Of a stretch of DNA of 64,000 nt, positions 20,554-22,227 are shown piece by piece. Below the pieces are notes generated by a model. That model saw nothing but the letters and a program-made list of their open reading frames with translations. It was not told the DNA's origin and ran no database searches. The DNA lies in assembly GCA_963748825.1 (NCBI GenBank), contig CAVVKN010000023.1, positions 160,001 through 224,000 on the forward strand, written 5' to 3'. A program made the translations under genes and the position numbers. How positions within the stretch are numbered: position 1 is the first letter of the stretch; every line of letters starts with the position of its first letter. The stretch is from Methanotrichaceae archaeon. GTDB taxonomy: Archaea; Halobacteriota; Methanosarcinia; Methanotrichales; Methanotrichaceae.

Positions 20554-20703
20554 TTAAGCGGTCTTGTTTTCCTTGGACTTCATCCTCAGTCCTTTGTAAC
20601 CGCACTTGCGGCAGCGAGTCGCTCTTACGGGATTTCGTGCGTTGCAGCTCATGCATATCTTGAGATTCAAGATTCTATTTTCTGCTTCTGGAAATCTAGC
20701 CAT
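20554..20703 (-). CDS. rpl40e: 50S ribosomal protein L40e
   Basis: [10 protein letters not shown]...[20 protein letters not shown]; true start at 20703. Confidence 0.95.
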
Positions 20704-20754
20704 AATTTTATCGCCTTTATTTACTCTGATATGAAACTTTCCATAATTAAATAG

Positions 20755-20903
20755 CGCCGGGGTTGGGATTTTCCTGAGAGAGCTATCGCGCCCCGCCATT
20801 TTGAACCCAAGCGTCCCTGGAAGGGACAACAGGTCTCGAGCCTGCCGCGTATGAACTCCCGCCGCCCAAAAGCAACAGAAATTGTCCGCTCTGCCACCCC
20901 GGC
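20755..20903 (-). tRNA. tRNA-Ser(CGA) with two non-canonical introns (20851-20881 at ~21/22; 20769-20799 at 59/60)
   Basis: Acceptor GCCGGGG/CCCCGGC, discriminator G, anticodon arm GCAGG-CTCGAGA-CCTGT, long variable arm GTCCCT/AGGGAC, T stem TTGGG/CCCAA. Removing both inserts gives an 87-nt cloverleaf. Confidence 0.88.
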
Positions 20904-20985
20904 CCTTGCAATTCTCCGTCTGACCCATGCTTTATATCTGTTGCTCCTCCCTAGTAGCCGCAGGATCCTAAATTCAGGTGTTGTT

Positions 20986-22227
20986 ATGTCTCTTAGAGAT
21001 GATGCATTAGCATTTCATAAAGATGCCAGGGGCAAGATTGCCATCCACAGCAAGGTCCCTTGCGCTACCGTGCGTGACCTCTCCTTAGCGTACACTCCGG
21101 GCGTTGCCGAACCCTGTCGCGAGATTGAGAAGAATCCAAACGACGTTTATGAGTACACCGCCAAGGGCAATATCGTGGCCGTGGTAACAGACGGAACTGC
21201 GGTCCTGGGCCTCGGCGATATTGGTCCCTTGGCTTCCATCCCGGTTATGGAAGGAAAGGCCATTTTGTTCAAGAACTTCGCCGGCATAGATGCCTTTCCC
21301 ATAGCCATAACCTCCAAGGACCCTTCCGTCATCGTGGATACAGTTGCCAGAATAGAGAGCGTCTTTGGCGGAATCAACCTGGAGGACATAAGCGCACCTC
21401 GCTGCTTTGAGGTAGAGGAGCGGCTCAAGAAGATCCTGTCGATACCAGTCTTTCACGATGACCAGCACGGCACCGCCGTGGTCGCCCTGGCCGCGCTCAT
21501 CAATGCCCTCAAGGTGGTAGGCAAGAGCTTTGATCAGGTACGCGTGGCCGTGAGTGGAGCTGGCGCGGCGGGCATCGCCGTTACCAAATTTCTCTACAGC
21601 TTTGGGGTAAAGGACGTCATACTCTGCGATAGCCGGGGAGTGATCCACACCGGCCGGCCCGACCTCAACCCATCCAAAAAGGAGATCGCCCGGACGACCA
21701 ATCCCCGTAATGTTACGGGCACGCTTGCCGACGCCATTGCCGGAGCGGACGTCTACCTGGGCCTGTCAGTAGCGGGCATTGTAACTCCCGCTATGGTAAA
21801 GAGCATGGCCTCCGGCGCAATCGTCTTTGCCATGGCTAATCCCGTGCCCGAGATCATGCCCGATCTGGCCTTGCAAGCTGGAGCGCGAGTTGTAGCCACC
21901 GGCCGATCCGATTTCCCCAATCAGGTAAACAATGTGCTTGGCTTCCCGGGGATCTTTCGCGGAGCCCTGGATGTGCGGGCTTCAGACATCAATGAGGCCA
22001 TGAAGGTCGCAGCTTCGCGGGCCATTGCCGACCTGGTAGAGAACGTATCCGAGGAGTGCATCATTCCCTCACCACTGGACCGAAGAGTCGTTCCCGCCGT
22101 CGCCGCAGCCGTCGCTCGCGCCGCCATAGAAACGGGCGTGGCGCGCGTTCCGATGGATCCAGCCGAGGTGGGAAGACGAGCGGAGGCATTGGTAAAGAAT
22201 CTGGAGAGAAACGCTTGCTCTCCATAG
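20986..22227 (+). CDS. NAD(P)-dependent malic enzyme
   Basis: LAYTPGVA, GINLED, FHDDQHGT and GAGAAG motifs; start at ATG 20986. Confidence 0.93.
   Translation: MSLRDDALAFHKDARGKIAIHSKVPCATVRDLSLAYTPGVAEPCREIEKNPNDVYEYTAKGNIVAVVTDGTAVLGLGDIGPLASIPVMEGKAILFKNFAGIDAFPIAITSKDPSVIVDTVARIESVFGGINLEDISAPRCFEVEERLKKILSIPVFHDDQHGTAVVALAALINALKVVGKSFDQVRVAVSGAGAAGIAVTKFLYSFGVKDVILCDSRGVIHTGRPDLNPSKKEIARTTNPRNVTGTLADAIAGADVYLGLSVAGIVTPAMVKSMASGAIVFAMANPVPEIMPDLALQAGARVVATGRSDFPNQVNNVLGFPGIFRGALDVRASDINEAMKVAASRAIADLVENVSEECIIPSPLDRRVVPAVAAAVARAAIETGVARVPMDPAEVGRRAEALVKNLERNACSP

Follow-up and report, generated by a model that had tools for sequence, protein, structure and literature searches.

Among the described systems closest to the gene reported here are the multi-intron tRNAs of the Thermoproteales, in which several short introns, each set in a bulge-helix-bulge (BHB) motif, lie at non-canonical positions that include 59/60. 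As far as the account of them in PMC4090602 goes, many genes are affected there, signs of intron transposition are seen, and the splicing endonuclease is an (alpha-beta)2 enzyme with a Crenarchaea-specific loop. Another is the pre-tRNA-Glu(UUC) of Methanopyrus kandleri, a euryarchaeal transcript with a relaxed (HBh') intron in the D-arm and a second intron that is canonical; the organism's EndA is an (alpha-beta)2 enzyme lacking the specificity loop, and the mature tRNA has been seen by RNA-seq (Kaneta et al. 2018, PMC5829648, in the sections concerned with this transcript). Relaxed non-canonical introns have been said to be handled by no enzymes other than those of the (alpha-beta)2 and epsilon2 types that carry an inserted loop (PMC5829648 and PMC12397907, in their passages on enzyme specificity), and the first of these reports describes the alpha'2 enzyme of Archaeoglobus fulgidus as removing the relaxed D-loop intron of the M. 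kandleri pre-tRNA-Glu inefficiently in vitro.

Closer still are genes that have been printed in a catalogue. Supplementary File S1 of the tRNAscan-SE 2.0 paper (Chan et al. 2021, PMC8450103) predicts, in the entries relevant here, a two-intron tRNA-Ser(CGA) in three Methanosaeta genomes: Methanosaeta concilii GP6 (151 nt, introns at 14-38 and 107-137, 69.0 bits), M. harundinacea 6Ac (150 nt, introns at 23-55 and 106-136, 81.3 bits) and M. thermophila PT (153 nt, introns at 22-56 and 107-136, 81.8 bits). All three are flagged "novel" relative to tRNAscan-SE 1.3, and the part of the supplement that holds them lists them without discussion. The same supplement prints a one-intron tRNA-Ser(CGA) for Methanohalobium evestigatum (intron 23-60, 81.5 bits) and for Methanococcoides methylutens, and gives a D-loop intron for the tRNA-Arg(CCT) of M. 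thermophila as well. The literature search found no paper discussing these introns, and it is possible that Marck & Grosjean 2003 or Sugahara et al. 2007 contain an earlier description; methanogens do not come up in a 2026 preprint on the tRNA introns of Asgard archaea.

The locus described here lies in the window, by which is meant the whole 64-kb stretch of DNA that was analysed, and it is the same gene as that of the three Methanosaeta genomes. In their printed entries the exons are identical or nearly so, a T-loop intron of 30-31 nt lies between A59 and T60, a D-loop intron follows gene position 22, the 37/38 site is empty and the total length is 150-153 nt. The intron sequences themselves differ from those of the window; for example, intron 2 of M. 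thermophila carries TGAA, giving a perfect 4-bp central helix, whereas the window carries GGAA with an A.G opposition. The two-intron tRNA-Ser(CGA) gene is therefore already known, having been catalogued for three cultured relatives in 2021. The first-pass annotation, made from the DNA of the window, had allowed that the gene would be real but not novel if the same introns were already on record in relatives, and the entries of Supplementary File S1 (PMC8450103) show that this is how matters stand. What is added here is a conserved ortholog, a phyletic map of both introns and a corrected boundary for intron 1; no new kind of element is described.

The comparison with the other systems is also informative. 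The one-intron genes of M. evestigatum and M. methylutens, as printed, and of families f3, f5, f6 and lineage f2/g2 of the same class (see below) have their intron at the same D-loop position and use the same exon GGAC in the central helix, but differ from the window in being without a T-loop intron. Like the M. kandleri transcript, the window's gene is euryarchaeal and has a relaxed D-arm intron together with an EndA that lacks the specificity loop; here, however, the enzyme is of the alpha'2 type, both introns are non-canonical, and the mature tRNA is one predicted from the sequence. With the Thermoproteales it shares several short BHB introns at non-canonical positions, yet they are confined to a single gene, they are old and fixed, and the enzyme is again alpha'2.

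The gene occupies 149 nt of the minus strand (20903-20755) and, as read from the sequence, consists of three exons of 22, 51 and 14 nt; all coordinates given for its parts refer to that strand. Exon 1 (20882-20903) contains the 5' strand of the acceptor stem, positions 8-9, the 5' strand of the D-stem and the D-loop as far as A21. Its six 3'-terminal bases belong to the motif of intron 1, with GGAC as the 5' strand of the central helix and the AA that follows as the first two bases of the bulge. Intron 1 (20851-20881, 31 nt) interrupts the D-loop at 21/22 and is composed of a bulge base T, a G-U-rich inner hairpin, a GTTC that pairs with the exon GGAC, and bulge bases AT. Exon 2 (20800-20850) continues with the 3' strand of the D-stem, the anticodon arm with the anticodon CGA at 20838-20836, the long variable arm, the 5' strand of the T-stem and the T-loop as far as A59. 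Intron 2 (20769-20799, 31 nt) interrupts the T-loop at 59/60; it is made up of a bulge base A, an inner hairpin whose six-base loop is conserved, a GGAA that lies opposite the exon TTCA, and bulge bases AA. Exon 3 (20755-20768) supplies T60, the 3' strands of the T-stem and the acceptor stem, and the discriminator G73; CCA is not encoded at its end.

A TATA-like box, GATATAAAG, is found at 20930-20938 on the minus strand and ends 27 nt upstream of the start of the tRNA. It sits inside a 22-nt block, AGCAACAGATATAAAGCATGG, whose sequence and distance from the tRNA do not vary among the 19 genus sequences listed; the 25 nt separating the block from the tRNA are variable across the genus sequences. 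Other genera have similar A/T boxes at the same distance upstream of the tRNA. From its conservation and position the block with its box is a probable archaeal promoter, and a T-rich tract, TATTTAATTAT (20743-20753, minus strand), 2 nt past the tRNA 3' end, is a possible terminator.

It had been claimed in the first-pass annotation that a complete serine tRNA is recovered only when 20881-20851 and 20799-20769 are removed, as two 31-nt non-canonical introns at 21/22 and 59/60, and that there is no intron at the canonical 37/38 site. The present reading of the sequence agrees with this to the base. When the exons were joined by script, ARAGORN's call was a tRNA-Ser(cga), 87 nt long, in which the acceptor stem has 7 bp and the anticodon and T stems 5 bp each, and its drawing displayed the class II features of a long variable arm, with a stem of 5-6 bp, and a discriminator G. 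When only one of the two segments was removed ARAGORN gave no Ser call; it is only the double-spliced form that is recognised. The spliced sequence thus has the anticodon, the long variable arm, the G73 and the cloverleaf stems expected of a serine tRNA. Its D stem is weak, with two Watson-Crick pairs only and an A12.C23 mismatch, and this mismatch is also present in intronless orthologs. We consider it highly probable that 20903-20755 is the only tRNA-Ser(CGA) gene detected in this genome and that its product is a two-intron precursor spliced, by way of BHB motifs, by an alpha'2 EndA.

Both introns display the elements of a BHB motif, namely an exon-intron helix of four positions and two 3-nt bulges, the size of the bulges being taken as given by the motif-parsing script. 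In intron 1 the central helix GGAC/GTTC consists of three Watson-Crick pairs and one G-U pair and is accompanied by the bulges AA|T and AT|A; the exon-side GGAC includes G18 and G19 of the D-loop. This helix is fully paired in each of the 39 intron-bearing sequences that were parsed, with the intron side reading GTTC, GTCC or GTCT. The inner hairpin has 9-11 bp. The outer helix reaches at best 2 bp (G15-C25 and C16-G24) and does so with a 4-nt bulge on the 3' side; since it does not exceed 2 bp and needs a 4-nt instead of a 3-nt bulge, the motif of intron 1 is relaxed.

In intron 2 the T stem serves as the outer helix and the bulges read AA|A and AA|T; in the central helix, TTCA/GGAA, three positions are paired and one is an A.G. 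Three pairs plus the A.G are seen in 22 of 24 sequences and four pairs in the remaining two. The A.G is invariant in the window's genus (20/20), whereas L045 and L047, which belong to two other genera of the family, carry TGAA; this gives a perfect 4-bp central helix and so supports the register adopted for intron 2. The motif is near-strict hBHBh', its outer helix being the 5-bp T stem and its inner hairpin showing compensatory changes. The structural details proposed in the first-pass annotation (a relaxed motif for intron 1 and, for intron 2, a T-stem outer helix with one mismatch in the central helix) were therefore borne out.

A gene of this form is hidden from commonly used programs. ARAGORN found no tRNA in the whole window, and Rfam at the gathering score found an SRP RNA and a DUF3800-X RNA there but no tRNA. 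A whole-genome search with RF00005 returned 45 matches, none of them at this locus, and a permissive Rfam scan of 20650-21000 (E<=10) yielded no tRNA match. RF00005 assigned 47.7 bits to the intronless form (L039, the one f8 gene scanned) and 38.5-40.6 bits to one-intron forms; two-intron forms received no score from this model. Both programs are thus blind to the unspliced gene, as had been anticipated in the suggestion that standard annotation could miss it. The accompanying suggestion, that the gene could be overwritten by extended rpl40e and malic enzyme ORFs, was also well founded: two ORFs, 20554-20928 on the minus strand and 20851-22227 on the plus strand, overrun the tRNA gene, and their Pfam matches (L40e and malic enzyme) are confined to regions outside it.

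No other Ser(CGA) gene, a point that the first-pass annotation had left to be checked, was found in the assembly (2.88 Mb in 25 contigs, 50.8% G+C, 94.9% complete). ARAGORN with intron search gave Ser TGA, GGA and GCT only, and BLAST of all tRNAs and of the spliced candidate against the genome revealed no second copy. The codon UCG accounts for 12.4% of serine codons in 564 long ORFs. Tools other than ARAGORN were also applied to the genome as a whole. A custom scan for a T-arm and adjoining acceptor 3' strand with a complementary 5' strand within 400 nt returned 34 candidates, of which one fell off the ARAGORN calls, and that one was spurious. BLAST of the spliced tRNAs against the genome otherwise gave only a degenerate tRNA-Leu-like fragment on contig C11. 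By these three methods no further non-canonical intron was found in the genome, with three tRNAs unaccounted for: none of the methods recovered Leu(TAA), Pro(CGG) or a third CAT tRNA from the assembly, and these may sit in assembly gaps.

The splicing endonuclease was examined in the same genome. There is a single EndA locus, a 350-aa ORF built of two tandem repeat units (two PF01974 and two PF02778 matches), whose best solved relative is the A. fulgidus alpha'2 enzyme (E=5e-41; 1R0V, 2GJW). The catalytic Tyr/His/Lys motifs FRVY, HSEY and SVRK are kept in the C-terminal repeat. No further locus in the genome matches PF01974, and hence there is no separate beta subunit gene. Because it is a single two-repeat gene with the A. 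fulgidus enzyme as its best solved relative, EndA is judged from its sequence to be of the ordinary single-gene alpha'2 type and not heteromeric; the first-pass annotation had named the architecture of EndA as something to be inspected, and this is what the inspection gave. EndA was also aligned from 11 lineages, of which three belong to the window's family, five are others with a D-loop intron, and the rest are from f8 (intronless) and f2/g4 (canonical intron only). No indel in this alignment separates the intron-bearing from the intronless lineages, and the architecture of the predicted enzyme gives no sign of special adaptation.

The distribution of the two introns was followed in 392 genomes of the class. 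In the window's family, a single alignment spans the whole two-intron gene in 87 of 105 genomes (G000 included), representing 16 genera; of the others, 7 give partial matches that stop at contig ends or masked bases and 11 give none. Among sequences of other families, picked from the best matches, the D-loop intron occurs alone in family f3 (9/9 sequences), family f5 (2/2), family f6 (3/3) and f2/g2 (1/1), and no non-canonical intron is present in family f8 (3/3; L039, L040 and L044) or f2/g4 (2/2; L031 and L032). The T-loop intron was found in none of these 20 sequences examined from other families. Across the class the length of the D-loop intron ranges from 17 to 39 nt, and where it occurs alone from 17 to 38 nt. 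Given this distribution by family, the T-loop intron is a family-level character and the D-loop intron, which is common to several other families of the class, is to be read as the older of the two. A single gain at the base of the family is the probable origin of the T-loop intron. As judged from their phyletic pattern both introns are old and vertically inherited, with no sign of recent or repeated gain.

These results bear on the proposal, made in the first-pass annotation, that the lineage has a splicing endonuclease of wider specificity, or an ongoing gain of introns, such as the Thermoproteales show. Intron 1 is relaxed, with an outer helix that is weak or absent, and relaxed motifs are said to need an (alpha-beta)2 or epsilon2 enzyme with a specific loop (PMC5829648, in the passages already referred to); the D-loop intron in the tRNA-Arg(CCT) of M. 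thermophila (PMC8450103, as printed) is a further point in its favour. Against this, there is one alpha'2 EndA gene and no gene for a second subunit, no EndA indel tracks the introns in the 11 sequences, and the genome has no other non-canonical intron among the tRNAs that were found. Furthermore, the fixed positions of the introns in one gene, across the family or the class, indicate old single gains. With a plain alpha'2 enzyme and introns of this age the proposal did not hold up, and we regard it as unlikely, although less so than the two rivals taken up below, other boundaries for intron 1 and a pseudogene.

A different possibility is that the gene is real and spliced but that intron 1 has other boundaries, such as those printed for M. 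concilii GP6 by tRNAscan-SE 2.0 (14-38, at 69.0 bits; PMC8450103, in the entry for that genome), so that part of the hairpin would stay in an enlarged D-loop. The thermodynamic fold might be cited in support: in the minimum-energy fold of the precursor (-66.9 kcal/mol) the hairpin of intron 1 runs through the bulges and the motif is not formed, the minimum-energy and centroid structures both lack the bulges, and forcing central helix 1 costs around 5.5 kcal/mol. This counts weakly against the BHB motif.

The control genes, on the other hand, speak clearly for the boundaries used here. The f8 genes L039, L040 and L044 are intronless and 86 nt long, and the f2/g4 genes L031 and L032 have a canonical 15-nt intron in the anticodon loop only; the D-arm and T-loop of all five are collinear with the predicted spliced product of the window, and the spliced D-arm differs from the f8 genes at a single D-loop base (position 20b). 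This agreement with natural intronless orthologs fixes how long each excised piece is and in what register it lies. As a general property, the splicing enzyme cleaves each 3-nt bulge behind its second base, on the 3' side of either strand of the 4-bp helix. Applied to the two motifs, this rule gives exactly the predicted junctions, in agreement with the intronless orthologs. Alignment A1 has two variable columns at the junction, 23 and 61, and these boundaries place both of them in intron sequence. In the printed entries of PMC8450103, M. harundinacea and Methanohalobium evestigatum are given the boundaries used here, and M. thermophila nearly so. The M. concilii call of 14-38 is very likely a mis-delimitation: under it half of the hairpin would remain in the "mature" sequence, its score is 12 bits lower, and it conflicts with the intronless orthologs. 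Other boundaries for intron 1 are therefore very improbable, and the boundaries at 20881 and 20851 are kept in what follows.

Evidence that the locus is maintained as a gene comes from its conservation within the genus. A DNA search of 41 related genomes turned it up in 21 of the 24 congeneric genomes other than the window's own. When 20 genus sequences are aligned, no variation is seen in 82 of the 87 exon columns (21/22 in exon 1, 48/51 in exon 2 and 13/14 in exon 3), whereas only 21 of the 72 intron columns are free of it; the exons remain 97-100% identical to the copy in the window, and the introns drop to about 60%. Pairs were counted on a specified structure comprising the tRNA stems and both BHB motifs. 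Of 980 cells 94.4% are paired; shifting the 3' partners by 1-3 columns lowers the share to 35-52%, and the covariation score was reached in 0 of 500 shuffles. Double-sided changes were found at eight pairs, and all eight lie in the inner helices of the two introns; in the inner helix of intron 2 six of nine pairs have changed on both sides. The tRNA stems are nearly invariable and so are uninformative for covariation. When no structure was supplied, RNAalifold recovered the acceptor, anticodon, variable and T stems as well as both intron hairpins.

One member of the genus, G021 (93% complete), has no detectable copy; the sole pattern match there (3 mismatches) falls in coding sequence and was rejected. 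The gene may therefore be dispensable. A tRNA-Ser(UGA) could read UCG by wobble.

RNA data from four libraries, X1-X4, were available for comparison. Contigs from these libraries cover the unspliced gene, either that of the window or those of close relatives, and DNA may be present in the libraries. Intron 2 is contained in all four and intron 1 in part (to 20864 in X1 and X2, to 20873 in X3 and to 20888 in X4). No joint across either intron is reported for X1-X4, though contigs cannot show that a spliced form is absent.

The remaining alternative, that the locus is a decaying pseudogene with two insertions that are never removed and that UCG is read by tRNA-Ser(UGA), can draw on the spliced product not having been seen, on generic tRNA models giving no score at the locus, on the weak D stem and on the missing copy in G021, but it is hardly credible for a locus whose exons are near-invariant while its introns drift with compensation in the very helices that a splicing enzyme needs, which is kept with both introns in so many genomes and genera of the family, which has a conserved promoter block upstream, and which is the sole Ser(CGA) gene found. 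We conclude that the gene is real and under strong selection, and that it is almost certainly spliced by the usual archaeal pathway.

The pathway would run as follows. The gene would be transcribed from the conserved TATA-box promoter as a 149-nt body, which cannot fold as a tRNA since 31-nt introns sit in its D-loop (21/22) and T-loop (59/60). Each pair of intron-exon boundaries would instead fold as a BHB, in which exon bases pair with the 3' end of the intron and the interior of the intron forms a hairpin. The single alpha'2-type EndA would then cut after the second base of each bulge, and an RNA ligase, which in relatives is RtcB, would join the exons. Addition of CCA would complete an 87-nt class II tRNA that is predicted to read UCG in translation. 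RtcB was not found in the 94.9%-complete assembly of this genome; of 25 relatives with a completeness of 90% or more, 24 have it, and its absence here is read as an assembly gap.

For annotation, the consequence is that the sole Ser(CGA) gene found in the genome escapes both ARAGORN and the generic Rfam model and can be overwritten by two over-extended ORFs; archaeal-mode tRNAscan-SE 2.0 is needed to find such a gene.

For the enzymology, the tRNA-Ser(CGA) gene described here does not fit the generalisation that ties relaxed introns to loop-bearing enzymes. It is conceivable, and we put it forward only tentatively as the less probable reading, that the gene is a conserved natural counter-example in which an ordinary alpha'2 enzyme without a specificity loop removes a relaxed D-loop intron efficiently. 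If that were true it would break the rule that only loop-bearing (alpha-beta)2 and epsilon2 enzymes handle relaxed non-canonical introns, and also the rule of at most one canonical intron per euryarchaeal tRNA. The more modest question raised is how a plain alpha'2 enzyme is to be reconciled with a relaxed D-loop motif that several families of the class have kept. The textbook rule, by which Euryarchaeota with alpha4 or alpha'2 endonucleases have single canonical introns only, is too simple, for here an entire family of acetate-using methanogens has a gene with two introns as a fixed feature.

In the M. concilii GP6 gene trna35, the D-loop intron was set at positions 14-38 by tRNAscan-SE 2.0, with a score of 69.0, and the same gene in two other Methanosaeta genomes is listed with scores of 81.3 and 81.8 by the same program (PMC8450103, Supplementary File S1). 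Comparison with intronless orthologs, together with the calls in those two other Methanosaeta genomes, indicates that the true start of this intron lies after position 22. For intron 2 (window 20769-20799), the alignment of 20 same-genus tRNA-Ser(CGA) genes shows a hairpin loop (columns 124-131) in which the closing C-G pair is invariant, as are the G and the A at the two ends of the loop, giving the pattern C G-N-N-N-N-A G in 20/20 sequences; the stem beneath this loop is variable among the same 20.

The longest mechanical ORFs of both neighbouring genes extend into the tRNA gene (20903-20755, minus strand): that of the L40e-like gene runs from 20554 to 20928 on the minus strand and that of the malic enzyme gene from 20851 to 22227 on the plus strand. 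The Pfam match starts at residue 89 in the L40e-like ORF and at residue 68 in the malic enzyme ORF, in both cases outside the tRNA. With 21.1 bits, the L40e match falls short of the cut-off of 23 and is weak. Elsewhere in the window, on the minus strand, a DUF3800-X RNA (80 bits; 4433-4504) lies beside the archaeal SRP RNA (193.5 bits; 4670-4984).

In G021, a same-genus relative that is 93% complete in 5 contigs, no Ser(CGA) copy was detected by BLAST or with a 20-nt pattern allowing 3 mismatches; this may reflect either loss of the gene or an assembly gap. RtcB (PF01139) was not found in the window's own assembly, searched whole with the profile and by tblastn with a relative's protein. It was found in 24 of the 25 relatives that are at least 90% complete, and its absence here is probably an assembly gap. 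Searches of the same whole assembly with ARAGORN, Rfam, a custom scan and BLAST also found no tRNA-Leu(TAA), tRNA-Pro(CGG) or third CAT tRNA; several tRNAs that ARAGORN reported, with introns 557-2047 nt long, seem to be false positives. One contig of this assembly carries a degenerate tRNA-Leu-like fragment (G000:C11:42140-42225) that has a good T arm and TAA in its anticodon loop, but in which neither the acceptor strands nor the anticodon stem pair. This fragment is possibly a pseudogene, or else what is left of an integration site.

The D stem of the spliced tRNA-Ser(CGA) contains an A12.C23 mismatch, formed by window positions 20892 and 20848. Across the tRNA-Ser(CGA) genes compared (L001-L049), A12.C23 is invariant in families f1, f3 and f5 and in the intronless genes of f8; the pair is A12-U23 in f6 and in genus g4 of f2, and U12-A23 in genus g2 of f2. 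Two possible explanations are that the mismatch is tolerated and that position 23 undergoes editing or modification.
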